DNA from: an uncultured Pseudomonadota bacterium
GTDB taxonomy: Bacteria; Myxococcota_A; Polyangia; Fen-1088
Reading direction: 5' to 3'
Assembly: GCA_963847705.1 (NCBI GenBank)
Contig: CAWKBC010000010.1
Span: 133,890-197,889 of the forward strand
Length of the DNA stretch: 64,000 nt
The translations under genes and the position numbers were made by a program. The notes below the pieces were generated by a model, which saw nothing but the letters and a program-made list of their open reading frames with translations, searched no databases and was not told where the DNA came from. Of this stretch, positions 45,816 to 64,000 are shown in pieces (the stretch's first letter is position 1; each line of letters begins with the position of its first letter).

Positions 45816-45943
45816 CTCGCTCGCCTCGCTGCCCAACGCGAGGCCGGCACGCTAATCCCGACGTCGTCGCTGGACGATGACCAGCTTCGCCTCGGGCTCG
45901 TCACCGCGGCGGTCGCCCACCTCTGGGCGATCGGCCTAACCTG

Positions 45944-45972
45944 TTGACCTGGAAGGAAAATAAAGACATAAA
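45944..45972 (+). promoter_or_regulatory. putative promoter of the tRNA-Gly locus
   Basis: TTGACC-17 nt A-rich spacer-CATAAA, ending 12 nt before the tRNA 5' end. Confidence 0.45.
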
Positions 45973-45984
45973 GCAGTCACACGC

Positions 45985-46022
45985 GCGGGATTAACTCAGT
46001 TGGTAGAGTGTCAGCTTCCCAA
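45985..46022 (+). pseudogene. 5' half of tRNA-Gly(CCC), truncated at the anticodon loop (attL of island)
   Basis: GCGGGAT-TA-ACTC-AGTTGGTA-GAGT-G-TCAGC-TTCCCAA; the expected GCTGA, T-arm and 3' acceptor strand do not follow. Confidence 0.88.
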
Positions 46023-46049: not shown

Positions 46050-46142
46050 ACGGCCCGTTACGAATCAGGCACTTAGACAATCCGAGGCGTGCCTGGACGT
46101 CCTCCTCGTAACGGGCCGTGGGTATGCATTGGGGTATGCATT
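46050..46142. repeat. 14-bp inverted repeat plus tandem 12-bp direct repeat (candidate integrase arm sites)
   Basis: ACGGCCCGTTACGA (46050-46063) / TCGTAACGGGCCGT (46106-46119); TGGGTATGCATT GGGGTATGCATT (46119-46142). Confidence 0.7.
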
Positions 46143-46180: not shown

Positions 46181-47284
46181 TCAGCCCGCCAGCCGGCGCT
46201 TCACCTCGTCGAGATAGCCGCGACGGCGAGGATGTCGTTTCCGCAGCTCGTCCAGGCGCGCTTCGAATTTTGCCGAGCGCCTGGCCCGCTGGGCCAGGTC
46301 TCGGAGATCGATGGTGAGGCGAACTGCCTCGACGTACTCCTTGAGATCGACGAGCCTGTCGAGGCGGCTCCATGCCTTGTCGCCTTGCCGATCGAGCGCA
46401 TCGAGACGTTTACGGCGGGCTGCTTCGGCTCGCGCCCGCGCTTGCGCGGCGTGACGAGCTTCTTCTTGTTTCTTGGTCTTGCGAAGTTCTGCCGCACGAT
46501 AGAGGAGCTCGGCGACGGTTCGGCCTTTGCTCGGCGTTGCGCCACTCTGGCGCTGAAAGGCGGCGAGGATCTCCGCGTTCGGCGATTCCTGAGGATGGCG
46601 GACGGCTCGAAGTAGCCATCGATCCTTGTCCGGCGTCGGCACGGTCTTCAGCCAGCGGCGCAGCGAAGCCACATCGATGTCGTCCGCGCGCGAGCCTTCA
46701 CCCGCTGCCCGGAGGAGGTCAGGGTCGATGCGCAGGAACTCGACGAAGGCCGAGAGCGGAGCCGATGGCGTCGAGAGGCCGGCCGGCACTGGAGGCTCGC
46801 GAGCCCCGGCGGGTACTTCGCCTGATTGCACCGCCAACAGCCAAGCGAGGTATGCGACGGAAAGGTCGCCTTGGAGCAGAGCCGCGCGCAGCGGCGCGAG
46901 CGCGCCGAGGCGACCGCCCTCGGAGAGGTCGTCCTCTGGTTCTTCGGAGTCGCTGTGTAGATCGAGCACGACGTAGCGGCCGGTCTTCGTGAGCGCGGCT
47001 GCTCCGCCGGGAAAATAGGGACGTAGGGCACCGTAATCCACCTTGGTGGCCGGAAGGCGAAGCATGAAACGGTGCGTACCCCAGTTGGCGAAGTAGAGGT
47101 GGAGGTCGAAGTAGCGGGCGAGGAGCTTGCCGGGATCGGCCTTCAGATCGCCCCAGTCGTATTCGTTCCAGAAGCGCGTCGGCGTGATCTCCGCACGCGT
47201 TGAGATCGACCGGAGCTCGGCCATCGCCTTGCGCGTGAGCGGCTGATCAAGGGCGACGAACTCGTAGCACTGGTACTCGCTCAT
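46181..47284 (-). CDS. conserved hypothetical protein (MSEYQxYEF... family)
   Basis: MSEYQCYEFVALDQPLT...ISTRAEITPTRFWNEYDWGDLK...YFDLHLYFANWGT; GGAG RBS; coiled C-terminus. Confidence 0.8.
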   Translation of the reverse strand: MSEYQCYEFVALDQPLTRKAMAELRSISTRAEITPTRFWNEYDWGDLKADPGKLLARYFDLHLYFANWGTHRFMLRLPATKVDYGALRPYFPGGAAALTKTGRYVVLDLHSDSEEPEDDLSEGGRLGALAPLRAALLQGDLSVAYLAWLLAVQSGEVPAGAREPPVPAGLSTPSAPLSAFVEFLRIDPDLLRAAGEGSRADDIDVASLRRWLKTVPTPDKDRWLLRAVRHPQESPNAEILAAFQRQSGATPSKGRTVAELLYRAAELRKTKKQEEARHAAQARARAEAARRKRLDALDRQGDKAWSRLDRLVDLKEYVEAVRLTIDLRDLAQRARRSAKFEARLDELRKRHPRRRGYLDEVKRRLAG

Positions 47285-47615: not shown

Positions 47616-50130
47616 GTGTCCCGCGAGGATGAGCTTGCCGCCCAGATAGAAGAGACGGAGGCCGAGTTGGCCGCTCTTGGCTATGCACGAGAGCAGACCC
47701 TGGCTCGATTGGCGGCGCTTCGGGCCTCCAGCTCTACATCTGGTGGCGCACCACCGCAGCTCCGGCTCCCGATCGTAAACAGTACTCGCGCTCCACGAAC
47801 CGGGGCCGAGAAGATCCGCCTGTTCCGAACATTGTTCCGCGGTCGTACCGACGTGTTCCCAAAACGGTGGGAGAACGCAAAGAAGGGACGGAGTGGCTAC
47901 GCGCCGGCTTGCGCCAACGAATGGGTGCGGGGCGTCTGTGAGAAACCCAAGGTCAAGTGCGGCGAGTGCCCGCACCAGGCGTTCATCACGGTCGACGACC
48001 GAGTCATCGCCGACCACCTGGGCGGCAAGTACACCGCTGGCGTCTATCCTCTCTTGTCCGACGACACGTGTTGGTTCGTCGCCGTGGACTTCGACAAAGC
48101 GTCCTGGAAGGACGACGTCGGCGCATTCGCGGAGACGTGTCGGGGGCACGCGCTGTCTCCCGCCATCGAGCGGTCGCGATCGGGCAACGGAGCGCACGGC
48201 TGGTTCTTCTTCACGGCACCCGTTCCTGCGCGTGACGCCAGGGACATGGCGTCATTCTTGCTCACCGAGACGATGCGGCTGCGACGAGAGCTGAATCTCG
48301 AATCGTACGATCGTCTCTTCCCCTCGCAGGACACGCTCCCCCAGGGTGGATTCGGGAATCTCATCGCACTGCCGTTCCAGTTTCACCCTCGGAAGGTCGG
48401 GCACAGCCTGTTCGTCGATGACCGGTTCGAGGCGCTTCCATGGGAACAGCAGTGGCAATTCCTCGCTGACATCGAACGAGTCGGGGAGGATCGCGTTCGT
48501 ACCCTTGCGAGAGAGGCGGTGCGCACGGCGCGCGTGCTCGCAGTTCCGGCGATCCCCGACGCGGAGGACGAAGACGACGAGCCCTGGAAGCCGGCGAAAT
48601 CCTCAAGCGGCGACGACGAAGCTCCCATTCCTGGTGCCGCCGGAGGTCAAGGCGGTTCTCGCCCAACGACTCTTCATAGACAAACAAGAGCTACCGTCCC
48701 CGCTGGTGTCGCGCCTCCGACGGCTTGCGGCGTTCCAGAATCCCGAGTTCTACAAGCGTCAGAAGCTCCGACTTTCGACGGCGCGAACTCCCCGCATCGT
48801 CGTCTGCGCCGAGGATCTGCCCAAACACCTCGCACTCCCGCGCGCCTGCACTGGCGACGTTCGGAGGCTTCTCGAAGACAACGGCTCGCGTCTCACGTGC
48901 GACGACCAGCGCAATCGCGGACGGCATGTCGCTCTGTCATTCCAGGGCACCCTAACGCCCGAGCAGCAGGACGCGGTTCAGGGGATGCTGCCGCACGACC
49001 TGGGCGTGCTCGTGGCGCCGCCGGGTGCAGGAAAGACGGTGATGGGCGCCTACTTGGTCGCGGCGCGCGGGGTCAATACTCTCGTCCTGGTTCACCGTCG
49101 TCCGCTGCTCGAGCAGTGGGTCAACCAGCTCGCCCTCTTTCTGGGCGTCGATCCTGCCGAGGTCGGGCGGATCGGCGGTGGCAAATCGCGACCGACCGGG
49201 ATGCTGGACGTCGCGATGATTCAGAGCCTCGTCCGCGACGGGCAGGTGAGCGAAGCCGTCGGCGACTACGGCCAGGTCATCGTCGACGAATGCCATCACG
49301 TGCCCGCCGTGTCGTTCGAGCGTGTCCTGGCGTCCGCCCGAGCGCAATACATCGTCGGGTTGACCGCCACGCCCCGACGGCGAGACGGGCACCATCCCAT
49401 CGGCGCGATGCAGCTCGGGCCGGTGCGGCACGTCATCAGCGGCAAAGCGCAGGCGGCGGCGCGCCCCTTCGAGCACAAGTTGATCGTCCGGGAGACGGAG
49501 CTGGCCGTCGCTGAGGAGAATCCGGCGATCCACACGATCTATCGGACCGTCGCCGGGGACCGCGCGCGTGGAGAGCTCATCGCCCGCGACGTGGGGCTGG
49601 CACTCGACGAGGGCCGATGCCCGATCGTGTTGACCGAACGAAAGGACCATCTGGAGCTTCTCGCTGACTTGATCGGAGGCGTCTGTCCAAGAGTCGCGGT
49701 CTTGCGTGGCGGGGCGGGATCGGTACGACGTGCGCGATCGGCGACGCAGTCCCTATCTGGCGCTGGCCCTCGCGTCATCGTCGCGACGGGTCGCTACGTG
49801 GGGGAGGGGTTCGACGATCCCGCGCTCGACACGCTGTTCCTGGCGATGCCGATCTCGTGGAAGGGGACCGTGATCCAGTACGCGGGGCGAATCCAGCGCC
49901 TCCACGCAGGGAAGCGTGAAGTCCGAATCTACGATTACGTCGACCGCAACATCCCAATGCTCGATCGCATGTTCCGGCGCCGCCTCGCCGGCTACCGGTC
50001 GATCGGATACGTGGAGGCAGATCTGCCTCCGGGCTACGGAGAGGCGGACGACGACTGGACCCTTGGACGCGGTTGGGCGGACGACCTGGACGAGGATGAC
50101 GCAGGCGAGATGAAGGCCCCGGAGGAGTAA
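47616..50130 (+). pseudogene. TOTE-type archaeo-eukaryotic primase domain + DEAD/DEAH (ResIII-like) helicase, split by a +1 frameshift near 48630
   Basis: Frame 1: FRGRTDVF, YAPACANEW, AVDFD, ERSRSGNGAHGW, GGFGNLIALP. Frame 2: AFQNPEFY, APPGAGKT, DECHH, GLTATP, EGFD, QYAGRIQR. Confidence 0.8.
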
Positions 50131-50134
50131 CCGC

Positions 50135-52069
50135 ATGGAGAACCAACCGGGCCCTGCCCTGATCCGCGTCCTGCGTCCCGAGCTCGCCGACCTCATAGCG
50201 GCTGGAGAGGTCGTCGAGCGGCCTGCTTCTGTGGTCAAGGAGCTCTGCGAGAACGCCATCGACGCCGGCGCCACCAAGATCGAAGTGACCGTCAAAGAGG
50301 GGGGGCGCAGGCTGATCCAGGTGGTGGACAACGGGTCCGGCATGACCGCCGAGGACGCCAGGCTGGCGCTTCGGCGGCATGCCACGTCCAAGCTCACGTC
50401 GGCAGAGCAGCTGTGGGGCATAGCGACGTTGGGGTTCCGTGGCGAGGCGCTCCCCTCCATCGCGGCAGTCTCGAGGCTGTCGCTCACTACCAAGCCCGCC
50501 TCAGCGGCGGCCGGGGTGCAGCTGGATGTAGTCGGCGGTCATGAGAAGGGATTCCAACAGGTAGGCGTGCCGCAAGGGACACGAGTCGAGATCGGCGACC
50601 TCTTCTTCAATACGCCCGCCCGACTGAAGTTCCTGAAGAGCGACATCACGGAGACGGCGAGTGCGACCGAAACCGTGTTGCGCCTGGCCATTGGTCACCC
50701 AGACGTCCACTTTCGATTGATGGTCGACGGTCGACAGGCGTTCGATTTGCCGGTTCACCGGTCACGGGGGGAGCGCGTGCGTGCGGCCCTGGCCCGCCGC
50801 GGTGCTTCGGCGCTGCACGAGGTGCTCGTAGGAGATGGCCCCTACAGGTTCAACCTGTTTCTGGCTCCGCCCGAGGAATCAACCACCTCATCAGGATCCA
50901 CGTTTCTTTTCGTCGGACGCCGCTATGTTCGGGACCGATTCCTGCTTCGGGCAGTGGTCGAAGGCTGCGGAACGGCGCTCGAGAAGGGGCGCTATCCGCT
51001 CGCCGTTCTCTTCCTCGAAGCTCCGCCTGATGAAGTCGACGTCAACGCCCACCCTCAGAAGACGGAGGTGCGGTTCCTAAAGGCGGAGATGGTCGCGGCG
51101 GCCGTGAAGCGAATTGTGGCCGATGCGCTAACAAAGGCGCCTTGGGCTGCGCGGGCGTCACGGTCTCACAGCTCCGTGGGAGCTCTGGTGGGCGAAGGCA
51201 AGGTGAAGCCCACTGCTTTCGGCTCTTCGCGGGCGGCATTGCGCGCCCAAGTCGAAGCCAATCTTTCGCCGCCCAAAACGGGTCCCTCGTATGGGTCAGC
51301 ATCGACGCCAACTGTGGGCGCCGCACCATCCGGCGCGCTCGCCGCTTCTCCCCGACCTCAAGCCGAGCAACGGGCCCTCCCCTTACAAGCCGGCGAAGAG
51401 CCCGCCCGCCCGAGGCCACCCTCGCCTCAGACTGTTCAAATACCGGCTCCCATCCAGCCACCGGCGGTACCGCCTCAGGGTGAGCGAAAGACGCCCTTAC
51501 TAAAGCCAGCTGGGCCGGTTCGCTTGCTCCAATCCTGGGGCGCCTATCTCCTGTGCGTTCTGGACCAAGATCTCTACATCGTGGACCCGCACGCCGCCGC
51601 CGAGGTGGTGACTCGGCGCACCCTACACGCGGAACTCGCGGCAAACGAAGTGGCGACGGTTCCGCTTTTGAACCGGGCTCCTCTCCGATTGGATCCTCAA
51701 CTGAAACTCGTGTTTCGGCACAAGCAGCCCCTCTTGAACATACTGGGCTTCGAATTCGCCGAGACTTCCGGGAAGGTCGTTCTGACTGCTGTCCCGCGTT
51801 GCCTGCAGTTCGTACCGCCGGGGTCACTGGTGGCGGCCGTCCTGCGGGAGGTACTGGCGGCTGCGACCGTTTCCCCGGAGCGTCGGATCAACCTCCTGGT
51901 CGATGTGATGGCGGCGCAACGCCGCGAATATGGCAGCGAGGAGCCTGCTCGCCTCGCTTCCACCCTTACAAAAGAGGATCTGACTGCCACGTGCCGTGGG
52001 GGAACCCGGGTGGCCATGAAGGTGACCCCCGAGGATGTCGCCGCCTCCTTGGCCGCGATCAGTCGATGA
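50135..52069 (+). CDS. mutL: MutL paralogue (intact GHKL ATPase + transducer; divergent C-terminus with degenerate endonuclease motif)
   Basis: IAAGEVVERPASVVKELCENAIDAGA, DNGSGM, RHATSK, LGFRGEALPSIA, VDVNAHPQKTEVRF; DPHAAAEVVTRR replaces DQHAxxExxxxE. Confidence 0.88.
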   Translation: MENQPGPALIRVLRPELADLIAAGEVVERPASVVKELCENAIDAGATKIEVTVKEGGRRLIQVVDNGSGMTAEDARLALRRHATSKLTSAEQLWGIATLGFRGEALPSIAAVSRLSLTTKPASAAAGVQLDVVGGHEKGFQQVGVPQGTRVEIGDLFFNTPARLKFLKSDITETASATETVLRLAIGHPDVHFRLMVDGRQAFDLPVHRSRGERVRAALARRGASALHEVLVGDGPYRFNLFLAPPEESTTSSGSTFLFVGRRYVRDRFLLRAVVEGCGTALEKGRYPLAVLFLEAPPDEVDVNAHPQKTEVRFLKAEMVAAAVKRIVADALTKAPWAARASRSHSSVGALVGEGKVKPTAFGSSRAALRAQVEANLSPPKTGPSYGSASTPTVGAAPSGALAASPRPQAEQRALPLQAGEEPARPRPPSPQTVQIPAPIQPPAVPPQGERKTPLLKPAGPVRLLQSWGAYLLCVLDQDLYIVDPHAAAEVVTRRTLHAELAANEVATVPLLNRAPLRLDPQLKLVFRHKQPLLNILGFEFAETSGKVVLTAVPRCLQFVPPGSLVAAVLREVLAAATVSPERRINLLVDVMAAQRREYGSEEPARLASTLTKEDLTATCRGGTRVAMKVTPEDVAASLAAISR

Positions 52070-52315: not shown

Positions 52316-55300
52316 TCAACCCACGACTTCGAGAAACTCCGCGATCACGCGGATCTCACCGTCCTCCCGGCGCATCCGGATCGGGTTGAACCCAGGGTTG
52401 TCGGGGCGGAGCTCGATATCGGCGGCGCCTCCGTCGGGGCTCGTCGCCGTTACGCGCCAGCGCTTCAGGGTGTAGCTGCCGCCGGTCTCTGGGTCGGTGG
52501 CGTCTCGGAGCTGGACGACGACGCGGCGGCCGTCGAGGGCGGTGGCGGCGGGGGGGACCCCTTCGGGGAAGAGGCGGAAAAGGGCCCAGCTTCCGTCGGG
52601 GATAGCGGTTTCCATCGAACGGCCGACGACCTTGGCCACGAACATTCGCCGGTCGAGGATGCGCTGGGCGTGGACCTTGGCCCAGCCGATGATCTCCGGG
52701 GCCTGGGAAGGGCTGAACGCGCCGGCGGCGGCGGCAAGGTCGTGGACCGGGACGGCCTCGCGGAACTGCTGGTCGGGCGGCACGCTTTTCACGATGTCCA
52801 GCTTTGACCGATCGCGCTTGAGCGAATCCATCTCGGGGAGCAGCGGCAGCGTTTCAAGGTGTCGCAGCAGGTCGCCGATCTCCTTGCGCGACTGCCGGCC
52901 CCACCACTTGATGTCCTCGCGGCCGATCGGCTCGTTCTCCAGCAGGAGGAGGTAGTGCCACGGCTCGCGGTCGTGTTCGGTCAGCAACTCGCAGTAGCGC
53001 TGGCCCCGGGCGGCCTTTGTGCGGTCGCGGTCGTCGAATCGCCCCTTCACCTCGATGATGAAGTTGTGGAATACCTCGCCAATGCGCGCCCGCGCGATGA
53101 AGTCGGGGTAATAATGCGAAACCAGGCCCTGCCAGTCGTACTCGATGAAGTAGCCGACACCGCTACGGTGGTTGTAGACCCAGCCGGTGACGTCCTTGGC
53201 GGCGTCCAGCAACCGCGCCACGGCCTCCTCGTCGGCGTTCTCCAGCGCGGCGCGCTCGAAGCAGCTCTTTGTGGGTGCGTCGAAGACGTGTTTCTTCAGG
53301 GCCTGGTACCCCTCCAACTCTTCGGCGTGGCGCTCTGACATCTGCGCCTCGGACGCCCGCCGCTCGGCGATGATCGCCTCCTGCAGCGGCTGGAGCAGGG
53401 CTTTCTTGACCGCGCCAACGACGTCGGCGCGCGCCAGGTTGCCCAGGGCGATCCGCGCGTAGGCGCCCTCTGGGATCCGGTCGAAGTACAGCGGCAAGCC
53501 CTTCGGCACGGAGAACGTCTTCCGCTCCAGGAACTCCCGGACGATGCCCTTGACCGCGGTCTTGTGGTGAAAGCTGGCCCGCATCTCCCGCAGAATCGGG
53601 ACCGCGATCGCCACCTCGATCACGTGGTCGAAGTCCCGGTACGACGGCATCTCGGGGACCACGAACGACTGGCCTTCGGTCTCTGCCAACGCGAGCGCTT
53701 CTTTCAGGTACGTCTTGATCTCGGTATCGGCGATCTCCTCCATCCATGCCAAACGGGGCATCAACGCCGGGATGCTGGCGGTGTCGAACGACTTTCGCCA
53801 GTCCGGCACGACTTCGCGCAGTCCCTCGAAACGCACCAACCGCACGCCATGCGCCTGACGTTCCCTCAGGTCGGCCTTCTGCAGAATCGGTACGTACTCG
53901 CGCGCGTGCTCGATCTCGTCGGAAGAGCGTTCCTCGATGATGTCCTGGATCTGATCGAGGATCGCCTTGAACGAAGGATGCTCGATGACGTACAGCTCCT
54001 CCGTCTTCATGAAGGCAGCGCCTTCCTCGTCGAGGATCGGCGGGTGCATCTTGCGCAGACCGCGGCCGAGGGTCTGTTCCGTCAGGGTGCGTGAATCGCA
54101 CGGGCGCAACGGGACGATGACCTTGACGTTGCGGACGTCCCAGCCCTCTTTCAGCATCATGACGCTGACGACGACGTTGTAGGGGTTGGGCTCCATGACC
54201 GGGCGCCCATCGGCGTCGAGCATGGGCCTGCCGTCCTCGTCCACCTTCGGGATCTCATCGTGGTCCACGGCGTTCACCGCCCGCCGGACGCCCTCCCACG
54301 CCTCATCGTTGCGTTGCTCCTTCTCGCCGATGTGAATCTCGACGATGGTGGATCGGGGGACGCCGCCCTCACGATCGACGAATAGAGGCGCATCCTCTAC
54401 CTTTCCGCGATAGCCGGTGACGGCACGCCCGTCGAGTTCGTCGCGTGTGGCCTCGCCATAGCGCAAGAAGTTGGCGACCTCGCGCGCCTCATTCCGGTCG
54501 TTGGCCAAGATGAAGAGGATTGGCTTCCGCTTGTCGCCCTCGTCGGCGAGCTGCTCCTTCACTTTCTTCCAGCGCTCGATGCCGGTGACCAGCAGGTTGC
54601 GATACTTCTCCCAGGCGTTGGGTTGCCCCTCGCGGACCGGCGCCTCGATGTCCCCGGTCTTCTGGTTCCTCACCTCCACCCTCTCCAGCACCGGTCGCTT
54701 GACGATGCCGTCGCGGATGGCGTCCGCCAGCGGGTAATAGACCGTCGTGTGCCTGAAGAGATCCGCCGGCCGAAACTGCTTGTCCGCCTTGGCGCCGCCC
54801 TTGGACGACTTCGAAGCCTTTGCAGTCGAGCCGGTCTCCTCGAACAGGGTGGCCGATAGATCGACCTGCAACGCCACGCGCCCCGTCGCTTCGCCGTCAC
54901 CGTTCAGGCGCCGGATCGATCGGATCCAGGCCATGGCCGTGGCCTCGTCGTCGGTCTGGCTGACGCGCGCCTTGTCGCGGGCCTTCTGCTCGAACTGCGC
55001 GTGCCGGGTCTCGTCCCACACGTGGTGGGCCTCGTCGTTCAGGACCAACAGCCCACGCGATTGAGCGAATCGGTCCAGCAGCGGTGTCGATACGGCCTCC
55101 AGACGGTCGGGCTCGCCCACATGGAACAGGAGATCGATCTGCTGCTGCTCCCACTGCCCCAGCGTCGGTGCGTCCTCGCTCTCGCGCAGAAGCTGGTGAT
55201 AGTTCGTGACCACCAGCGCACCCTGGGAGGGATCCAGCACGCGCGGGCAAGTGGTGGGGTCGTAGACCTTGAGGTTCCACATCTGGTCGAACGCGGGGGG

Positions 55301-55924
55301 CACCACGGGATCGCCCAGGAACACCGAGGTCCCGCCATAAGGCGGGCAGAAATCCTGAAGCAACCGATCCTTCACGAACAGGTTCGGCGCGATCAGGATC
55401 GCGTGCGGACCGAAACCGAGCGGACTCTCCGCTTCGTTGATCGCGTTCAGGTAAGACCACGCGATGAGCAGGCTCATCATCTTGGTCTTGCCCGAGCCCG
55501 TCGCCAGTTGGCCGCCCAGCTTCGCCCACGGATCGCGCTGGGGACCCAGCGGATCCACGCCGGCCAGCTGGTAGAGATCCTCCGTGCGCCGCAGGCCGCG
55601 AACCTCGTAGAGGTAGATGAACGTCTCGACCAGCCTGCGCTGGTGCGGCCAGTACTTGAAGGTCAGCGTTCCACGCGGTCCTCCCAGCAAGTGCGGCTCA
55701 TGCCTGAACCAGTGCTGGAGGAGGTGCATTGTCGTATCGCTGACGGGGCGATCGCCCTCGGCGCCCGGCTGGTAGCGCGGCGCCTGTTGCGGGTATGCCT
55801 CGGCCGCCCGGCCCAACGTGAAGCCGCGCCAGGCGTCAACGCGACGCTGGATCTCGCCGATGACACGTGCCTGGCCCCGCAGATCGCCGAGGTCGGGTGA
55901 TCGATCGAAGGGGCCGGCCATCAC
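52316..55924 (-). CDS. res: type III restriction Res subunit (SF2 helicase + PD-(D/E)xK nuclease) with C-terminal S24/LexA-like peptidase domain
   Basis: LATGSGKT, NDEAHH, LSAT, MLKEGWDVRNV, QTLGRGLR; YPDF...IIEVKG; S24: LAAAAG, GRSME, YTLKR, LRPDNP. Confidence 0.88.
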   Translation of the reverse strand: MMAGPFDRSPDLGDLRGQARVIGEIQRRVDAWRGFTLGRAAEAYPQQAPRYQPGAEGDRPVSDTTMHLLQHWFRHEPHLLGGPRGTLTFKYWPHQRRLVETFIYLYEVRGLRRTEDLYQLAGVDPLGPQRDPWAKLGGQLATGSGKTKMMSLLIAWSYLNAINEAESPLGFGPHAILIAPNLFVKDRLLQDFCPPYGGTSVFLGDPVVPPAFDQMWNLKVYDPTTCPRVLDPSQGALVVTNYHQLLRESEDAPTLGQWEQQQIDLLFHVGEPDRLEAVSTPLLDRFAQSRGLLVLNDEAHHVWDETRHAQFEQKARDKARVSQTDDEATAMAWIRSIRRLNGDGEATGRVALQVDLSATLFEETGSTAKASKSSKGGAKADKQFRPADLFRHTTVYYPLADAIRDGIVKRPVLERVEVRNQKTGDIEAPVREGQPNAWEKYRNLLVTGIERWKKVKEQLADEGDKRKPILFILANDRNEAREVANFLRYGEATRDELDGRAVTGYRGKVEDAPLFVDREGGVPRSTIVEIHIGEKEQRNDEAWEGVRRAVNAVDHDEIPKVDEDGRPMLDADGRPVMEPNPYNVVVSVMMLKEGWDVRNVKVIVPLRPCDSRTLTEQTLGRGLRKMHPPILDEEGAAFMKTEELYVIEHPSFKAILDQIQDIIEERSSDEIEHAREYVPILQKADLRERQAHGVRLVRFEGLREVVPDWRKSFDTASIPALMPRLAWMEEIADTEIKTYLKEALALAETEGQSFVVPEMPSYRDFDHVIEVAIAVPILREMRASFHHKTAVKGIVREFLERKTFSVPKGLPLYFDRIPEGAYARIALGNLARADVVGAVKKALLQPLQEAIIAERRASEAQMSERHAEELEGYQALKKHVFDAPTKSCFERAALENADEEAVARLLDAAKDVTGWVYNHRSGVGYFIEYDWQGLVSHYYPDFIARARIGEVFHNFIIEVKGRFDDRDRTKAARGQRYCELLTEHDREPWHYLLLLENEPIGREDIKWWGRQSRKEIGDLLRHLETLPLLPEMDSLKRDRSKLDIVKSVPPDQQFREAVPVHDLAAAAGAFSPSQAPEIIGWAKVHAQRILDRRMFVAKVVGRSMETAIPDGSWALFRLFPEGVPPAATALDGRRVVVQLRDATDPETGGSYTLKRWRVTATSPDGGAADIELRPDNPGFNPIRMRREDGEIRVIAEFLEVVG

Positions 55925-57045
55925 TTGTCGTCCGGAGCGCGTGCCGCTAGCTGTTCCTCGATGAAGCGCTGCATCTCCTCTTTCTTCGGCAGCTCCAGCA
56001 GGTACTTGGACACGAACAGGCCGTTATCGATGCCAGCCAGGGCGTATTCCACGAGGGCGTGATCCTTCTGCGTGCAGAGGAGGATGCCCACCGGCGGGTT
56101 GTCGCCCTCGGTCATCATGTTCTTTCGGTACCAGCTCACGTAGGTGTTCAGCTGGCCGATGTTCTCGTGATTGAACGCGGCGGCCTTCAGCTCGACCAGG
56201 ACGTGGCACTTGAGGACTCGATGGTAGAAGACCAGGTCCACGAAGTTGTGGATGTCACCGATCAGGATGCGCTTCTGACGGGCCTCGAAGCAGAAGCCGT
56301 GGCCCAGCTCGATGAGAAATTCTTGCAGCTTGTCGAGGAGCTGATCTTCGAGGTGGGATTCGCTCATGACCTCCTGGGGCTTCAACCCCAGGAACTCGAA
56401 GACGTAGGGGTCGCGAATATTCAGTGCCGTCTGTGCACGCTCGGCGCCCTGCTGAGTCAGGGCCGCCAACTTCCCCTTGTCCTTCGAGAGCCCGGAGCGC
56501 TCGTAGTAGAGGCTGGCGATCTGCCGCTTCAGCTCGCGGACGGACCAATTTCCCCGAATGCACTCCAGCTCATAGAAGGCGCGCTTGGTCTCGTCGTCGC
56601 ATTGCAGCAGCTCGGCGATGTGGGTGAATGAGAGCTTGGTCAAGATTTCGGCAGCGCCGACGCCCAATTGTGGAGTCGGTGACTCCCGAATGTTGGCGTC
56701 GGTTCCTGGGAGGAGCGTCTTCGCCAATTGTGGAGTCAGCGACTCCACGATCTGGGGGTAGGTCAGATAGAACTGCCGGTAGCGGTACAGCTCGCGCCGG
56801 TCGCACCGCGACACTCCCATCCGGGTCAGCGACTCGGAGAGCCGGTCCAGGAGCTTCTCTCCGTACCGCTGGCGGTCGACGCCGCGACGCTCGTACTCTT
56901 CGATGTGCAGGCCGATCAGCCAGTTGCGCAGGGTAAGGCTCGAATTGACCGCTCGGGAAGCCTGCGCCGATAGCTCGGCGTGCGCCTCCCCTATCGCCGT
57001 GACCAGGCGATCAAAAGATAGAGGGGATTTCGCCGGTGTCGTCAT
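55921..57045 (-). CDS. yhcG: YhcG/DUF1016 PD-(D/E)xK nuclease family protein
   Basis: RNWLIG, LSFTH, NWSVRELKRQI, RDPYVFEFL, ELGHGFCFEARQKR, VDLVFYHRVLKCHVLVELK, GQLNTY. Confidence 0.93.
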   Translation of the reverse strand: MTTPAKSPLSFDRLVTAIGEAHAELSAQASRAVNSSLTLRNWLIGLHIEEYERRGVDRQRYGEKLLDRLSESLTRMGVSRCDRRELYRYRQFYLTYPQIVESLTPQLAKTLLPGTDANIRESPTPQLGVGAAEILTKLSFTHIAELLQCDDETKRAFYELECIRGNWSVRELKRQIASLYYERSGLSKDKGKLAALTQQGAERAQTALNIRDPYVFEFLGLKPQEVMSESHLEDQLLDKLQEFLIELGHGFCFEARQKRILIGDIHNFVDLVFYHRVLKCHVLVELKAAAFNHENIGQLNTYVSWYRKNMMTEGDNPPVGILLCTQKDHALVEYALAGIDNGLFVSKYLLELPKKEEMQRFIEEQLAARAPDDK

Positions 57046-59822
57046 TTCACCTCGACGTTCACGGTGGCGATGCCGTCGTTCCCGAAGACGTCCGTGACGC
57101 GCGCGGCGATGCGGTACTGGCCGGGGTCGGTGTATTTGAGCTCGGCCACGAAGACCAGGGGCTCGGTCTCGCCCTTCGACTTGCGCAGGCGGAAGCTCTG
57201 CCAGTCGGTCTCGAAGATGGGCTTGTCGTCCTGGCCGACGCGGGTCCCGTAGTTCCAATCGACGGCCCAGAAGTCCACGAACTTCTGCCAACTGTCAGCC
57301 TTCTGCAGCCACTTCTGCAGCTCGACTTCGCGCGCGCTCCACTTTTCGGCCTCGGCCTCGAGCTTCCGGCGCGCGGTGGGAGTCGTGGCATCGGTGACGG
57401 GCTTCAGGACTGGGCGCTGGCTGGCCAGGAACGACTCGATGTCCACCTCGCAGCGTTCGAGGTGCAGCTTGACGATGCGGCCGGAGAGCTGGGGCGACAG
57501 CACGATCGACAGCGGCGCGTAGAAGGCTGGAATCGCCATCGACTCGATCGGTGCGTCGGGTGGACGGTTGAGAAGCTGCATCCGGCGCCGGACCTCGTCG
57601 ATGGCCTGGGCGGGAATCACGCGGATGGTGACCGTCACGCCGGTCTTGGCCTGAACGTCCTCCTTCTCGCTGCCCGACAACGTGTCGAAGTCGGCGGACA
57701 GAATTGTCACGGCGTGGGTGTTGGTGTGCTGGGCCTCGCGCGCGATGTTCCAGACCTGGCCTGAAGAGATCGGACCGTCCAGCGGGCCGACGTGGATCCA
57801 CGTGTTGCCCTTGCGGCCGTGGAGGAGCGCGGACTGCGCGACCGGCTCACCACCGAAGACGCGGATCATTTCGTCGCGGTAGACAGAGCGACGTGTTTGG
57901 AAGTCTTGCCAGGCCTCGGCGCGCTGGTAGACGCCCATATTCTCGACGGTGAAGGGGCGAACGTTGAAGGTGCCGGGACTGCGCTGCGCCTTCTCCTTGC
58001 GCTCGATGTTCTTGCACTTGTCGCACTCGACGTAGTCGTGCTGCGCCTTCTCGGGTGGACGGGGCTGACCGTGCAGTTGGATCAGGCGCTTGCGGGCGAG
58101 GTGGATGGCGTATTTCCCGTTGTCGATTCCGATCCAGCGACGACCGAGGCGTTCTGCGGCCTCGGCGGTGGTGCCGGAGCCAAGGAAACAGTCGAGGACC
58201 AGGCCGTTGGCTGGAGACGAAATCGCAACGATACGTTCCAGCAGAGAGAGAGGCTTCTGAGTCGGATATCCGAGCCCCTCAATTGCCATTGGATTTACCG
58301 GCGGAACGTCATCCCAGAGGTTCTGAATAGGCGTTCCGTCCTTTTCCTCAAGAAAGCTGCGACGCTGCAGCCTCTTCGTCTTGTCGACGGGGAAATCTAT
58401 ACGGCCCTCCGCGTCCATCTGCTGCATCGTCTCCGGTGAAACCGCCCATCCATTGGCCGGGGGCGGGTAACCCTTGTAGACGTAACGGAGGTTAGGCCGA
58501 GGATTCGGACTTGTCAGATTGTCCAACCTATAGAAACGGCCCCTGTCGTCTTTGAATTTGAACCGCCCCACGTACTCCGGATCGTGGGCCGTTGTTTGCC
58601 CTTTGAAAAAGGGAGTCTCACCGCAGGAATAGGCCAGAAGGCTATCGGTGACTGAACCTAGCTTATTGAACGTACCCATGTACCCGGTGCGTCGTTTCCA
58701 CGTAATCTCATTTTGGAAATGCTCATACCCAAATACTTCATCCATCAGCACCTTGACGTAGTGGACCGCGTGCCAATCTAGGTGCACGTAGATGCTGCCC
58801 GTCGGCCCCAGCAGTTCCTTCAGTAGCTCCAGCCGCCGTCGCAGCATCGTCAGGAAGCTATCCAGCCCCTGCCGCCACGTGTCTTTGTAGGCGAGAATCT
58901 CGACCAGTGACGGCTCCTTCTTCACCTGGACGTGCGCCTCGTCGTCGAGGTCGATGTCCACGGTGTTGTCGGCCCGGAAATCGTTGTTCACCATGAACGG
59001 CGGGTCGATGTAGACGAGGTCGACCTTGCCGCGGTAGCGCCAGTCACGCGTGACGGGATCTTTCTCGTCCAGTAACGTTTGCAGCGCCACCAGGTTGTCG
59101 TTCGTCCAAATGAGCCGGTTCGCCGGCAGCCCTCCGCCCTCTCGCGCCTCAACGGTCCGCGTATCGATACCGCTCAGCACAGCGCCGCGATCCACCGCGC
59201 GCCCGGGCCGCACGATCTCCACCACCTGAGAGGGGACCGACAGCGCCGCCTCCTTGCGCCACATCCCCTGCCACGCCAGCCGCGGCTTGCGCGCGGTAAC
59301 CTCCAACGTGATTTCGCGGCTGGATGGCGCGCGGGCCGTTGGCCCTGTCGAGAACGAAGGTACCGGCGCTGGAGCTGGCTGATCGCCGGCCGTTTCCGAT
59401 TGGACTGGCGGTGTGGGCGTGGGATTGGGCACGGCGCGCGCGACCGGCGCGACCCAGGGAAGCGACGGCTGGGCCGGCGACGGCGGGGTGAGCGCGAACG
59501 GGACGTCAACGCCCGCCTGGCTGCCCTTCTTGCCCTTCGGCGCGGGGCGTTCGTCGGCGCCCGACGCAGCCAGTATCCGATCGATGATGATCTGCTTCTC
59601 CCGTCCTTCGGCAGGCTCGCCGACAGCGAAGCAGATCGACTTCAGCGTGTCGCGCGACAGCGAAGGCAAAATGCGCTCCAGGGTGGCCCGCTTACTACCC
59701 GCGACCGTATCGATTAGCTCGTCCAGGCGCATCCCGGTGCTGACGTCCAGCTCCAGCCCGCGCCCGATCTCCAACAATTCGGCCCTGGTCAGGGCGCCCA
59801 GCGCGCGTCGCTTGAACGTCAT
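57042..59822 (-). CDS. mod: type III Mod subunit, beta-class N6/N4 DNA methyltransferase with N- and C-terminal extensions
   Basis: Motif IV YIDPPF precedes motif I DCFLGSGTT; SIYVHLDWH, YPTQKP; C-terminal WAVDW...VTDVFGND; ATGA overlap with yhcG. Confidence 0.9.
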   Translation of the reverse strand: MTFKRRALGALTRAELLEIGRGLELDVSTGMRLDELIDTVAGSKRATLERILPSLSRDTLKSICFAVGEPAEGREKQIIIDRILAASGADERPAPKGKKGSQAGVDVPFALTPPSPAQPSLPWVAPVARAVPNPTPTPPVQSETAGDQPAPAPVPSFSTGPTARAPSSREITLEVTARKPRLAWQGMWRKEAALSVPSQVVEIVRPGRAVDRGAVLSGIDTRTVEAREGGGLPANRLIWTNDNLVALQTLLDEKDPVTRDWRYRGKVDLVYIDPPFMVNNDFRADNTVDIDLDDEAHVQVKKEPSLVEILAYKDTWRQGLDSFLTMLRRRLELLKELLGPTGSIYVHLDWHAVHYVKVLMDEVFGYEHFQNEITWKRRTGYMGTFNKLGSVTDSLLAYSCGETPFFKGQTTAHDPEYVGRFKFKDDRGRFYRLDNLTSPNPRPNLRYVYKGYPPPANGWAVSPETMQQMDAEGRIDFPVDKTKRLQRRSFLEEKDGTPIQNLWDDVPPVNPMAIEGLGYPTQKPLSLLERIVAISSPANGLVLDCFLGSGTTAEAAERLGRRWIGIDNGKYAIHLARKRLIQLHGQPRPPEKAQHDYVECDKCKNIERKEKAQRSPGTFNVRPFTVENMGVYQRAEAWQDFQTRRSVYRDEMIRVFGGEPVAQSALLHGRKGNTWIHVGPLDGPISSGQVWNIAREAQHTNTHAVTILSADFDTLSGSEKEDVQAKTGVTVTIRVIPAQAIDEVRRRMQLLNRPPDAPIESMAIPAFYAPLSIVLSPQLSGRIVKLHLERCEVDIESFLASQRPVLKPVTDATTPTARRKLEAEAEKWSAREVELQKWLQKADSWQKFVDFWAVDWNYGTRVGQDDKPIFETDWQSFRLRKSKGETEPLVFVAELKYTDPGQYRIAARVTDVFGNDGIATVNVEVK

Positions 59823-59941
59823 CTTCGGCGCGGGATGATACACCGCCGGGGCCAGGCCCCCCGAACTCCCCGAGCGGGGGTCGCGGGTTGCTGACCGGGC
59901 ATTTGGCGATACCATGGCGCCGGCGACGGAGGCCGGCCCCT

Positions 59942-60886
59942 GTGAACATCCCCGACTACCAGTCCCTCATGCTGCCCCTCCTAGAGGCGCTTGCCGATGG
60001 CCGGGAACGCCTCGTCAGGGACGTGCGCGAGGACATAGCCGCCAAGTTTGGTCTGGGAGCGGCAGAGAGGGAGGCGCTGTTGCCCAGCGGCAAGCAGCCC
60101 ATCTTCGACAACCGCATCGGCTGGGCCAAGACCTACCTGGCCAAAGCCGGGCTGGTCTCGTCGGTCAGGAGGGGCGTCTATCAGCTTACCGATCGCGGTC
60201 GCTCCGTCGTCGCGTCGAAGCCGCCGCGGGTCGATGTGGCCTACCTGGCACGGTTCCCCGAGTTCGAAGAGTTCCGCCGGAAGGCTGAGAACGAGACCGA
60301 GGGCGTCGATAACCTGCCGAAGAGCGATGCCGGCCCCGACACTATCGCTGTGGGGGCTCCCGCGTCGACGCCCCAGGAATCTCTGGACGCCGCCTATCAT
60401 CAACTCAGGCGCGCAGTCGAGACCGAGCTGTTGGCGGCCGTCAGGGGTGCTTCGTTCCGCTTCTTCGAGCGTTTGGTGGTCGAGCTGCTGGTGAAGATGG
60501 GGTACGGCGGGTCCCTCAAGGATGCCGGCAAGGCCATCGGTCGCAGCGGAGACGACGGTCTGGACGGCATCATCAAGGAGGACCACCTTGGCCTGGACGC
60601 GATCTACGTCCAGGCGAAGCGATGGGAACGAACCGTCGGCCGCCCCGAGGTCCAGGCGTTCGCCGGCAGTCTCGAAGGCGTGCGCGGGCGCAAGGGCGTG
60701 TTCATCACGACGTCCACCTTCTCGAGCGACGCCCGCGAATACGTCTCGCGGATCGAAAAGAAGATCGTCCTGGTCGACGGCCAACAGCTCGCATCGCTGA
60801 TGACCGACTTCGGAATCGGCGTCACACCGGTGAGCACCTACGAGGTCAAGCGTGTGGATGGTGACTATTTCTCGGAGGAGGGTTGA
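59942..60886 (+). CDS. mrr: Mrr type IV restriction endonuclease (Mrr_N + Mrr_cat)
   Basis: IPDYQSLMLPLL, LPSGKQPIFDNRIGWAKTYL, FFERLVVELL..MGYGG, DDGLDGII, YVQAKRW, KGVFITTS. Confidence 0.95.
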   Translation: MNIPDYQSLMLPLLEALADGRERLVRDVREDIAAKFGLGAAEREALLPSGKQPIFDNRIGWAKTYLAKAGLVSSVRRGVYQLTDRGRSVVASKPPRVDVAYLARFPEFEEFRRKAENETEGVDNLPKSDAGPDTIAVGAPASTPQESLDAAYHQLRRAVETELLAAVRGASFRFFERLVVELLVKMGYGGSLKDAGKAIGRSGDDGLDGIIKEDHLGLDAIYVQAKRWERTVGRPEVQAFAGSLEGVRGRKGVFITTSTFSSDAREYVSRIEKKIVLVDGQQLASLMTDFGIGVTPVSTYEVKRVDGDYFSEEG

Positions 60887-60923
60887 TCGGTGGGCAGACA
60901 TACCTTTCACCGAGCGCCGCCCC

Positions 60924-62096
60924 GTGGCTGACCACCCTGATCTATTTCCGTACGCCGTCTACACCACGCTGGCGGGGACGGTCTTCACCCAGGCGCTTGC
61001 CGCCGGAGGTCTGACGTTCAAGGAGGGAAAGCGATGGACCGGCGCAACGCACCTGCTCGATGAGGCGCGCGCACAAGGCCAGCGGGTTGCGTTGCTGGTC
61101 TCGGACGGGGCGTACGACTGCTCGACGCTGATCGGCTGGGCCGTGCTGGATCGGGTTGAGCTAGCGGACGACGGAACGCGGGTCTGGGCGAGCGAGCTGC
61201 GACCCCTAAAACGACACCGAACGCAGGAGCTGCTTCTACGCAAGAGTGGTCAGCCAATCGCCGAAGGTTTCATCCGCCCGTACGCACTCGTCCACACGCC
61301 TAGGTTCCTACCGGCCGGGTCTCCACGGCCGCTCGGACGCGCGGATGCTGGCGATCCCCCGACTGTCTTCAGCTTCGGGTACGAGGGCTGCGGCTCGGGC
61401 ACCGCGCGTCTCGTGGCCGCGGTCGACAAGGTCGAACGGGAGCGTGGATTCGAGCCGCCGCTGTGGGTCGACGCACGCGTCTCGCGCAGCGTCCGGGCGA
61501 TCGGGTTTCGCGAGAAGGCGTTCGAGCAGCTGCTCGGCTCAGCCCGCTACCTCTGGATGCGCGACCTCGGCAACGAGCGCGTCCAGCAGGGCAGAGGGGG
61601 GATCCAGATCCGTCGTCCCGAGGCCGTGGCCGATCTCCTGCGGCTCGCTCTCGATACACCGCGCCGACGGGTCATCTATTTCTGCTCGTGTGCGGGAAGC
61701 TCTGGCGAATGTCACCGCCACGAAGTGGGGCGCCTGCTCCTTCGCCATGCAAGAGCGGTTGGTGCCCGAATAGCGCGGGTCGAATGGCCCGGTGGCCAGC
61801 CTGCCACGCTGGCGCTCGATATTGCCTCCACCGCCGCGCTCAAACGAAAGACCATCGACACGCGCGGCTTCCTCGGAGAGGCAGAAGCGGCCGCAGTGCC
61901 GTGGGGATCGCACGGCATCCTGAGCGTGGCGAAGCAGGAGGCCGAGCACGTCCTGCTGGGCCCAGCCCTCTTCGGCGAAAAGCAGACGGTCCTGCGCGTC
62001 GTTGAGCACCTCGGTCCCGAGTCGCCCGGGGACCCGCTGTCCATCGCGCGCCGCTGGCGGAAGGCGCACGGGACTGACGTGCAGGCAGTCGGATGA
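60924..62096 (+). CDS. multi-domain protein: unknown N-terminal domain + DUF488-like domain + short C-terminal domain
   Basis: VFSFGYEG, VDAR..RS....GF, YLWMRDLGN, FCSC.....CHR match the DUF488 pattern; start uncertain. Confidence 0.65.
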   Translation: MADHPDLFPYAVYTTLAGTVFTQALAAGGLTFKEGKRWTGATHLLDEARAQGQRVALLVSDGAYDCSTLIGWAVLDRVELADDGTRVWASELRPLKRHRTQELLLRKSGQPIAEGFIRPYALVHTPRFLPAGSPRPLGRADAGDPPTVFSFGYEGCGSGTARLVAAVDKVERERGFEPPLWVDARVSRSVRAIGFREKAFEQLLGSARYLWMRDLGNERVQQGRGGIQIRRPEAVADLLRLALDTPRRRVIYFCSCAGSSGECHRHEVGRLLLRHARAVGARIARVEWPGGQPATLALDIASTAALKRKTIDTRGFLGEAEAAAVPWGSHGILSVAKQEAEHVLLGPALFGEKQTVLRVVEHLGPESPGDPLSIARRWRKAHGTDVQAVG

Positions 62097-62132: not shown

Positions 62133-64000
62133 CTAAAGATACTTCAACGGGCCACCGAGCCGACGCAGGAGCTCGATCTCGCCGTCCCGACCTTCGAGCC
62201 GGATCAATTTCTGTTCCTGGCCTTTGAGCCGGCCCTGCATCTCCTTACCCGGCGAGCTGAACGCGTAGCTGGCCGCTCGCTTTGCATAGGCGTCCCAGTC
62301 TCGTTTCTCCTTTGGTCGATCGGCTCGGGCGGCCTCCTTGATGGCGACGGCGATCGCGCCGCGGGAATGGCCGGTGACCGCCATTCGAACGGCGACCTCG
62401 GCGTCGAGCCGCGAAGGATCTGCGCGCCGCTGCGGCTGCTCTCGCATGATCTCGGCCAGATGGCGGCGATAGATCGCGGCCGGCGTCATGGACGTCGGTT
62501 GCGCCCGTGCCTGACGGTCCGGAGGGTCCGGTCTTCTCGTGGGCCGGAGGCGTTCGCGTTCTGCGGCGATCGCCTGCTGAAGGTTCGGGTTCGTGATCTT
62601 GAAGCCATGCTCGGCGGCCAGCTCGACGCAGGTCCGCTTGAATTGTTCGCTGCCGCGAACTGTGATGGCACCCCACTTCTGGGCGCTCAGCTGCAGGGCG
62701 GCCAGGACGCTTTCGCGTCGACCGCTGTCGTGGATGTCGATCGTTTTGCCGCGGTCGGTGAAGGCGGGTCCGCCTCGCGAGCCGCTCAAGTGATAGTGGA
62801 CCCTGCCGCCATCGACCACGGCGCTGAACGCCCGGATGTCCCGCGGCGCGGGTGGGTCGAATGTCGGTCCCTCGATGGTCGCCGGACGCCTCTCTCGGTG
62901 CCGCCACTTCTGGGCGTAGTCGCCCTTGAACCGGGACAGCCACTCCTCGCAGGAGGGAAAGCGACCCTTATTCCTTCGAAGGGCAGCCCGCTCCAGCTTA
63001 TGCCGGTCCCGCAGCTGGGCCTTTTCGCCCGCTTGGCGCGCCGCGAGCGTGCTCCGGAGGGCGTTGAGAAGCTCGCCCTTGCCCTTCCATGACCCGCCGA
63101 GGATGTCGGCTCGTTCCTGCCGATGCCGCTCGGCCGCGCGGCGCAGCTCCTTGCGCTGTTTGTCGATATTCAGCGCCCGGGCGGTGGCGCGCTCCTGGTA
63201 GTGCTTTCGCCGCTCCTCGGTGTACATCTGCAGCAGCGGCGATTTGGGCTCGAGGGAACGCGGAACGGACTGCGGCGTCGTGACCGTCGAGCCGGGCATG
63301 TACTCCCCGAGCCTCTTCTGAAGCGCCGACATGGAGCAGTCACGGCCGGCGGCGCTCGCTTTCACGGCCTGGTCGCCGACCCACAACACGGCGCCCGAGC
63401 CCTTCTTCTCGAACCGTATCCCCATGGGCGCGAGGGCTGCGTGCAGCTCTCGCCAGTTATGGACCCGCCTGATAAGCGGCGCGGCGTCTTCGATCGCGAC
63501 CCGCTCGGCGCTGCGCTCGCCGGCACGCTCCTCGAAGTCTCGCGCCCGAGCCGATGGCTGGCGCTCACCGTCCCCGCGGGGTCGCGCGCGCTCGGGCTCG
63601 CCATCCGGGCGAACGTCGTACAGAGGATGCGGCGCGGGCTCCCACCGCTGCCACAGCTCAATGCGAGCGATCGCCCGGTGCGCGATCTCATGGTCAAAGC
63701 CCTTGTTGACGGTGACGAGCCTTTCCGTCTCGGGGTTGACACGGTTCACGGCGACATGGACGTGCCAGATGTTCGTGTTGCGGTGGAGCGCATAGATCGC
63801 TTGATGCTCGGCGAGCCCCATCTCACCGAGGAACATCCTGACCGCTTCGTCGGCCTGTGCGGTGGTCGGCTGCTCGTTTTCCCGCCAGCTCAAGATCCAG
63901 TGCTGGACGGGCTGCGGGCTGCGCTTGGCGATCTCCGCGAGATCGATCATCTCCTGGACCTGGCTGTCGTGATCGATGTTTAAGAGGTTGAGCGCCCCCC
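62133..64000 (-). CDS. MOBP (TraI/MobA-type) relaxase with LPD7-like domain, 5' end beyond the window
   Basis: HWILSW..NEQP, ALHRNTNIWHVHVAVNRVNP (HUH); AFTDRG...AALQLSAQKWGAITVRGSEQFK; frame open to base 64000. Confidence 0.9.
   Translation of the reverse strand, partial: GALNLLNIDHDSQVQEMIDLAEIAKRSPQPVQHWILSWRENEQPTTAQADEAVRMFLGEMGLAEHQAIYALHRNTNIWHVHVAVNRVNPETERLVTVNKGFDHEIAHRAIARIELWQRWEPAPHPLYDVRPDGEPERARPRGDGERQPSARARDFEERAGERSAERVAIEDAAPLIRRVHNWRELHAALAPMGIRFEKKGSGAVLWVGDQAVKASAAGRDCSMSALQKRLGEYMPGSTVTTPQSVPRSLEPKSPLLQMYTEERRKHYQERATARALNIDKQRKELRRAAERHRQERADILGGSWKGKGELLNALRSTLAARQAGEKAQLRDRHKLERAALRRNKGRFPSCEEWLSRFKGDYAQKWRHRERRPATIEGPTFDPPAPRDIRAFSAVVDGGRVHYHLSGSRGGPAFTDRGKTIDIHDSGRRESVLAALQLSAQKWGAITVRGSEQFKRTCVELAAEHGFKITNPNLQQAIAAERERLRPTRRPDPPDRQARAQPTSMTPAAIYRRHLAEIMREQPQRRADPSRLDAEVAVRMAVTGHSRGAIAVAIKEAARADRPKEKRDWDAYAKRAASYAFSSPGKEMQGRLKGQEQKLIRLEGRDGEIELLRRLGGPLKYL

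Follow-up and report, generated by a model that had tools for sequence, protein, structure and literature searches.

What might a second MutL do for a bacterium when it is carried by a mobile element, directly behind a primase-helicase gene? The question is raised by a 64,000-nucleotide stretch of DNA (hereafter the window) that forms the end of contig C10 in the genome of an uncultured Polyangia bacterium (6.1 Mb, 85% complete), in which a gene termed here mutL2 follows a gene for an AEP-TOTE primase fused to a helicase. The original prediction on this locus proposed either a two-gene system, in which the MutL protein loads or activates the helicase or neighbouring nucleases, or a decoy that dampens host mismatch repair. 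The verdict reached here is that MutL2 is a real, selected and undescribed MutL variant, residing on mobile DNA in a host that has MutH. It is a conserved second MutL devoid of nuclease motifs, and it is cargo of an apparent mobilizable element integrated at a tRNA-Gly gene. As to its function, the explanation that I tentatively prefer is that of a dead-end clamp, which would be loaded by the host MutS, would be unable to hand on to MutH and would in this way dampen methyl-directed repair; I hold this to be possible rather than probable.

MutL2 has the domain order of the MutL family (GHKL ATPase, transducer, linker, MutL_C), with PF13589, PF01119 and PF08676 all above cut-off. When residue numbers are counted along the alignment with E. 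coli MutL, equivalents of E29, E32, N33, D58, R95, N302, K307, K159, R177 and R266 are retained; in MutL2 numbering the catalytic residues are E36, N40, D65, R102 and K309, and the DNA-binding residues K165, R183 and R268. The earlier statement that the GHKL ATPase is intact is thus borne out by this alignment. Sites that are invariant in the family are kept at 103 of 122 positions in the ATPase domain, 56 of 77 in the transducer and 31 of 70 in the C-terminal domain. None of the motifs of endonuclease MutLs (DQHA(X)2E(X)4E, ACH/ACR, C(P/N)HGRP, FXR) is intact in any of the six full-length MutL2 copies found, which share the same losses (substitutions are given in Table 1): ACH, CPHGRP, QxLLxP and the terminal FGR are absent from every complete C-terminal domain, the position of QxLLxP reading VPLLNR, VPLLNQ or VSLLNP. 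The sequences DPHAAAEVVTRR and CRGGTR are as originally described, and the losses of ACH, QRLLFP and FGR add to them; no diagnostic value, however, attaches to the final E of DQHA(X)2E(X)4E: the motif can be read in 40 family MutLs, of which only 10 have E there, and the host copy has G. An AlphaFold2 model of the C-terminal domain, built from a three-sequence input, had a mean confidence (pLDDT) of 38 and was discarded.

Homologue searches delimit a distinct clade, with a group at 85-93% identity and then a gap down to 62% and lower. It comprises six intact full-length proteins (P0001, P0144, P0148, P0004, P0146 and P0002) that are 77-95% identical, a copy split across two contigs in the congener G016, and three C-terminal fragments; among the 89 genomes of the host's family it is present in 2. 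In a GTDB scan G016 was the only match apart from a weak one of 40 residues in Anaerolineae, and a profile-free search of 1.84 billion representatives gave 58 matches, of which one was close (the remnant P0129) and the others were 24-40% identical. No relative was present among 99 pattern matches in viral contigs, and plasmid and phage collections yielded 55 and 20 records, every one below 60% identity to MutL2; the two plasmid matches that were opened (H4 and H19) have chromosome-like mutL-miaA contexts. In the tree the clade is fully supported and groups with the family MutLs (92/89); its stem measures 0.6 changes per site, and its tips are short. MutL2 shares 18 of 25 family-diagnostic sites, the best outgroup 10. 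From these comparisons, MutL2 appears clearly to be derived from the host's own family. Two other assignments were rejected: the second mutL match of G054 is placed by the tree with the ordinary copies of the genus, and a paraMORC/MORC identity does not agree with the grouping among family MutLs or with the presence of MutL_C. No account of this clade or of an AEP-helicase-MutL pair was found in the literature, although TOTE neighbourhood tables in supplements could list the pair.

Is the gene maintained? Pairwise NG86 estimates of the ratio of nonsynonymous to synonymous substitution rates (dN/dS), made on GC-rich genes, indicate that it is. Between mutL2 and the copy at locus L031 (84% DNA identity), dN/dS was 0.15 (95% interval 0.10-0.21) in the N-terminal region, 0.28 (0.18-0.42) in the C-terminal domain and 0.51 in the linker, at a dS of 0.42-0.45; none of 1000 bootstraps reached a dN/dS of 1. 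The corresponding values between host mutL genes were 0.15 (N-terminal) and 0.20 (C-terminal). Purifying selection on mutL2 argues that it is not simply decaying, and neutral decay, an outcome considered in the original prediction, does not fit values well below 1. Against the closer G016 copy the values were 0.11 for the ATPase, 0.37 for the transducer (interval to 0.93) and 0.56 for the C-terminal domain (0.21-1.05), and from these wide intervals a recent relaxation may have occurred.

The meaning of the lost nuclease motifs depends on the repair genes of the host. A separate canonical mutL, which the original prediction proposed to look for, lies on contig C29 and encodes DQHAAHER, ACH, QRLLFP and CPHGRP; its product and MutL2 share 64% identity across the N-terminal 330 residues. 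The window contains no mutS, as noted earlier, and the host gene lies on contig C27. A mutH gene is present on C30 (G000:C30; L109:1291-2067, minus strand), whose product matches E. coli MutH (PDB 2azo) with an E value of 8e-41; its best NCBIfam matches are to MutH, below their cut-offs, and residues K37, E45, D59, E66, K68 and Y203 are invariant in 22 of 22 aligned copies. By these alignments the host MutH is a true orthologue. Two Dam-family genes (C39 and C21) pass TIGR00571. Across the family, MutH was found in 83 and Dam-family matches in 81 of 89 genomes; in the class MutH is patchy by family (95 of 251 genomes drawn). The host carries MutH and two Dam-family methylase genes though its chromosomal MutL still has nuclease motifs, and no description of MutH with Dam in myxobacteria was found in the literature. 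NucS was found in none of five genomes searched, and Vsr in neither G000, the source genome, nor G016 (85% and 95% complete), so that a very-short-patch role is without support. The comparison with E. coli-type MutL drawn in the original prediction is made more apt by the presence of MutH and Dam.

Loss of the nuclease motifs is not peculiar to MutL2. Each C-terminal motif is kept in 91-95 of the 101 near-full-length ordinary matches to MutL2, eight of which are clearly eroded; in P0021 the Cys of CPHGRP is the only loss, and eroded family MutLs occur in several separate lineages: L105 (G044:C10), P0008, P0011, P0028, P0075, P0039, P0083, P0113 and P0027. In G044 (94% complete) the single mutL has the neighbours of the host copy and has lost the nuclease motifs, but it keeps QKLLFP. 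Outside this family, the genome G034 (95% complete) carries a motif-less MutL (L094), and searches there for MutH and NucS found neither. Since nuclease loss is recurrent in a MutH-bearing family, it is not in itself the sign of a decoy. The decoy idea nevertheless survives as the best guess, owing to an added loss, that of the patches which contact MutH in E. coli.

According to the available text of PMC1483222, the MutH site of E. coli MutL is outlined by N169, A251, Q314, L327 and the C-terminal segments 482-488 and 530-536. Two parts of this site are altered in MutL2. One is QxLLxP, the sole motif that E. coli MutL retains (PMC2965676, in the part available) and that MutL2 lacks. The other is the helix at residues 314-328, where 7 of 13 family-invariant sites are replaced, against a background of 41 of 228; this cluster was picked out before the comparison with the MutH site was made. 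Nuclease-eroded family MutLs outside the clade keep both a QxLLF-type patch and FARAxEVYAAVR(H/Q); MutL2 alone loses both. Conversely, the MutS-contact residues of E. coli MutL include K52 and A138 (PMC4521584, in the part available), and their equivalents in MutL2, R59 and G144, match the host state. MutL2 should therefore still be loaded by MutS, given that its ATPase, DNA-binding and most MutS-facing residues are kept, while the loss of QxLLxP together with the change in helix 314-328 favours a clamp that is loaded and does not hand on.

The proposed sequence of events is then the following. MutL2 would be translated from the helicase message and be loaded on DNA by the host MutS through its largely kept N-terminal surface; it would bind ATP and close round the DNA. 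Having no cutting site and no QxLLxP patch, and with an altered MutH-facing helix, it would hand on neither to MutH nor to the sliding clamp, and by competing with host MutL it would dampen MutS-MutH-Dam repair. Mismatch repair limits recombination between diverged DNA. The element might benefit in two ways: recombination between diverged elements would be less tightly controlled, and unmethylated DNA that has just arrived would be cut less by MutH.

Several points weigh against this explanation. Permutation gives p = 0.096 for the best 15-residue window anywhere in MutL2, residues 227-241 contain as many changes as helix 314-328, and several of the changes are conservative. The equivalent of the MutS-contact residue R55 (position 62) is Q in MutL2, K in P0002 and R in P0146, which could weaken loading. 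Broken copies exist (P0007/P0141 and P0129), as does a 710-base deletion in one contig of sequencing run X4 (runs X1-X4 were compared, 4 of 21 listed), and selection as strong as that on host mutL equally fits a fully working MutL. The well-known dominant-negative alleles of E. coli MutL are ATPase-defective, whereas the ATPase of MutL2 looks intact. In yeast, Pms1 mutants altered at the metal site show weak dominance, according to the available text of PMC3814310, but this precedent comes from a system without MutH. A co-fold of two MutL2 N-terminal domains with ATP/Mg and host MutH scored 0.00 twice (mark 0.32); its controls were not folded, and it counts neither way.

A close rival is that MutL2 is a functional, E. 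coli-type spare, stemming from a family lineage in which nicking was handed to MutH and still able to activate MutH and the repair helicase; it would be kept since extra MutL capacity benefits the host, hence the element. The wide occurrence of MutH and Dam in the family, the sole mutL of G044 that lacks nuclease motifs, and a dN/dS equal to that of the host gene all agree with this. In a tree built from both domains, MutL2 joins the lineage of G044 (100/99), and outside the motifs members of that lineage share 7-12 rare states with MutL2, other family members 0-5. This join, however, collapses once motif columns are removed, one outgroup row shares 9 rare states, and approximately unbiased (AU) tests on the N-terminal region reject none of three placements (with the G044 lineage, with the host's genus, or outside the family). 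A spare would also have to accommodate a QxLLxP loss and a remodelled helix that are found in MutL2 alone, on its stem, in a host that already has the full gene set; I consider it somewhat doubtful. Could mutL2 instead be a captured passenger in slow decay, with no present job and a low dN/dS that reflects past selection and short branches? Its GC content at third codon positions is 0.72, compared with 0.90 for host mutL and 0.81-0.87 for four island neighbours, the clade is rare and includes broken copies, and the C-terminal interval against G016 extends to 1.05. Yet both domains are well below 1 against L031 (dS 0.42-0.45), and the six intact copies keep a full open frame down to 77% identity, with linker indels that are in frame. 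A passenger is accordingly unlikely.

Slightly more unlikely is that MutL2 loads or activates the adjoining primase-helicase, in the manner of E. coli MutL with UvrD. The 4-nt spacing reported in the original prediction is exact (Table 1), and GGAGGAG in the helicase tail could serve as a ribosome-binding site for mutL2. In G016 the TAA-CCGC-ATG junction is identical, at 92% identity, with an intact helicase and a GNAT gene upstream; a contig of run X2 covers 45993-52099 at about 97%, and one of run X3 bridges the junction. Within this lineage purifying selection acts on the helicase (dN/dS, window versus G016, 0.21 and 0.10) as well as on mutL2. Similarity stops at 52099 in two independent copies, G016 and X2, and the helicase and mutL2 therefore travel as one unit, the restriction module beyond being a separate piece; downstream of mutL2, G016 has a tRNA-Gly remnant instead. 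Thus the pair does recur, in the congener and in soil runs, but only within a single element lineage, whose copies of the junction are 92-97% identical in DNA. L031 matches the window from the mutL2 start codon only, and an in-frame leader of P0004 matches the upstream DNA of L031 (local E 3e-5), not the helicase tail. As these two copies flank that of the window on both sides in the tree, the helicase link is likely a derived state. On the other strand, the upstream 300 bases of L031 hold by eye a putative Doc/Fic-like fragment; a Pfam scan of 50 codons there gave no match. The helicase thus lies upstream in two of the four copies with readable upstream DNA (those of the window, G016, L031 and P0004, and not of P0144, P0146, P0148 or the 34-kb P0002 contig). 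Of the 89 family genomes, 13 have AEP-TOTE matches. None of the 12 other regions contains mutL (5-14 kb from 10 other genomes, some stopping at contig ends, one below-cut-off match excluded), and several of them adjoin tRNA genes. Helicases 82% identical to that of the window are followed in G049 by a phosphoesterase and a reverse transcriptase, and in G073 by two small genes resembling a toxin-antitoxin pair. The place behind the helicase thus appears to be a variable cargo slot; these neighbourhoods lend no support to an obligate two-gene system, and MutL2 probably does not act as a partner of the helicase. In G049, whose helicase is the closest relative, the genes in the slot (L052:7014-9930), one for a metallophosphoesterase and a convergent one for a reverse transcriptase, may form a defence pair, retron-like or of another kind. 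Such defence-like cargo in relatives, and the restriction module next to mutL2 here, bring up the boldest and least probable proposal, which I regard as very unlikely: that MutL2, untethered from the replication clamp, activates MutH without a mismatch, turning mismatch repair into anti-phage restriction at unmethylated GATC. The host has MutH and Dam, and the N-terminal domain of E. coli MutL, given ATP, is able to stimulate MutH in vitro (PMC1483222, in the part available). Against this, the altered patches of MutL2 are the very ones that face MutH, PADLOC gave only a weak GHKL match (MzaB, E 7e-4), and GATC is neither depleted nor enriched in the island or genome (0.97 and 1.01).

The primase-helicase itself contains DFD, SRSGNGAH, four-Cys, Walker A, DECH, TAT and QYAGR motifs. 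In the assembly one extra base near 48607-48617 splits its frame, with PF22548 (E 5e-93, 311 bits) in one frame and ResIII/DEAD in the next. The G016 gene is an unbroken 842-codon frame, and the extra base is absent from runs X2 and X4, which makes the frameshift either recent or an assembly error; X3 has no coverage there, and X1 has one gap in the stretch. A CAPP identity is not indicated (NF040561, 97.6 bits against a cut-off of 200), and no core cas model was matched among the island open reading frames.

From about 46 kb onward the GC content of the window falls from about 70% to 62-67%. The attachment site at this border is 89% identical across 92 bp to a region of contig C44, where an intact tRNA-Gly(ccc) at C44:4345-4420, the likely other end of the element, is preceded by genes for a NikA-like protein and a tyrosine integrase; G016 uses the identical attachment site. 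The element seemingly enters tRNA-Gly(CCC) at the anticodon loop (window 45931-46022; C44:4293-4420), and seemingly provides a new upstream region and the 5' half of the tRNA, the usual case being the 3' half. The copies of GGGTATGCAT are likely integrase arm sites. The NikA/MobC-like gene and integrase at C44:127-4306 are likely the continuation of the element beyond contig C10, the join being inferred, not bridged. All parts of an integrative mobilizable element (tRNA attachment sites, tyrosine integrase, relaxase, MobC) are present, split over two contigs, and the whole reads as such an element of at least 22 kb at tRNA-Gly. The product of the divergent gene upstream of the helicase has no match in Pfam, NCBIfam or PADLOC; a relative with 38% identity sits at L050, about 1 kb away from a different AEP-TOTE helicase, and in G016 a GNAT gene takes its place. 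Between mutL2 and the restriction module, 52116-52230 matches a high-depth (94) contig in run X2 and is single-copy in the source genome. Within the module (52316-59915) a peptidase S24-like domain ends the type III-like Res protein, and the YhcG/DUF1016 gene overlaps Res as well as the methylase. Between Mrr and the relaxase, a 414-residue open reading frame (60852-62096) has no family match in three libraries.

Table 1. Positions of mutL2, its landmarks and the surrounding features in the window
Feature	Position	Strand	Remarks
Left attachment site	45931..46022	+	92-bp duplicate of region upstream of tRNA-Gly(CCC) plus tRNA 5' half (45985-46022)
Two copies of GGGTATGCAT	46120..46141	+	Further occurrence just inside the element's other end
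Gene of no known family	46181..47284	-	Divergent from helicase; 367 residues
AEP-TOTE primase fused to superfamily-2 (ResIII/XPB-like) helicase	47616..50130	+	PF22548, PF04851, PF00270
Junction	50121..50134	+	GGAGGAG 50121-50127, stop TAA 50128-50130, 4-nt spacer CCGC, then mutL ATG 50135
mutL2	50135..52069	+	TIGR00585, 446 bits against cut-off 180
mutL2 ATPase and transducer domains	50135..51169	+	Residues 1-345; catalytic and DNA-binding residues kept
Helix, residues 314-328	51074..51118	+	Spans equivalents of E. coli Q314-L327 (mapped MutH contact); 7/13 family-invariant sites replaced
mutL2 C-terminal domain	51509..52069	+	Residues 459-644; PF08676, E 1e-15
DPHAAAEVVTRR in place of DQHA(X)2E(X)4E	51584-51619	+	Residues 484-495
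VPLLNR in place of QRLLFP (QxLLxP)	51659-51676	+	
AAQ in place of ACH	51911-51919	+	
CRGGTR in place of CPHGRP	51992-52009	+	Residues 620-625
Restriction module	52316..62096		Type III-like Res, YhcG/DUF1016, N6 methylase, Mrr, gene of no family
TraI/MobA(P) relaxase	62133..63950	-	NF041893 above cut-off; contig ends at 64000

If the dead-end clamp is real, MutL2 would be an element-borne tuner of repair, changing the speed at which island cargo is shuffled and the mutation rate of the host, and mobile elements of soil Polyangia would use MutL as a control knob for the host MutH-Dam system. Should it turn out to be a spare or a passenger, MutL2 would be a captured gene of the ordinary sort occupying a cargo slot. 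Phage WO and SXT elements have long been listed as carrying additional mutL genes, and no test of the function of these genes was found in the literature consulted, as far as its available text goes. For deciding between spare, inhibitor and passenger, the host gene, the extra copy, intermediates with nuclease loss only, MutH and Dam are all available here.

Among known systems, E. coli MutL (PDB 1b63, 5akb) resembles MutL2 in having an intact GHKL ATPase and transducer and no nuclease motifs, and the MutL2 host, like E. coli with its methyl-directed repair (MutS-MutL-MutH-Dam), encodes MutS, MutH and Dam. Unlike E. coli MutL, MutL2 is a second, element-borne copy, from the host's family, beside a canonical host MutL. 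It shares its domain order with the endonuclease MutLs of B. subtilis and N. gonorrhoeae (motifs I-VI, as set out in the available text of PMC2965676), and residual D484, E490 and C620 and, by alignment, hydrophobic strands of the dimer subdomain still recall them; motifs II-VI, however, are all altered, and H486 is also lost in P0146. In the paraMORC and MORC proteins of restriction loci (PMC2292703, in the part available), a GHKL+S5 ATPase likewise lies near a superfamily-2 helicase and nucleases, but MutL2 is a recent true MutL, by its MutL_C and its identity to the host N-terminal domain, and its link to its neighbours is not conserved. The island helicase has the PF22548 AEP-TOTE domain in common with TOTE conflict systems, named for TPR, OB, TBP and effector (bioRxiv 10.1101/2025.09.15.676423, in the part available); unlike in those systems, no TPR, OB or TBP domain was found among the 10 island open reading frames scanned with Pfam, two of which have no family.

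Two mobile elements offer parallels. Variable region II of SXT/R391 contains a mutL-labelled gene (PMC6743048, PMC5958206, in the parts available), which like mutL2 is lone cargo on an integrative element, a likeness at the level of the label. Wolbachia phage WO has an extra full-length mutL beside the chromosomal copy (the available text of PMC368164, PMC9203015 and bioRxiv 2024.08.15.608088); this gene (WD0509; gwv_1098 in KX522565) is, like mutL2, an extra copy on a mobile element. The phage WO protein (L100:4995-6791) is eroded too, with DQHAAYER, and PYSGHERP where CPHGRP is expected. It is about 40% identical to MutL2 and of independent origin, and it keeps ACH and a QKLLP patch. Two cases only, these sequences hint at a convergent loss of CPHGRP in the MutLs of mobile elements.

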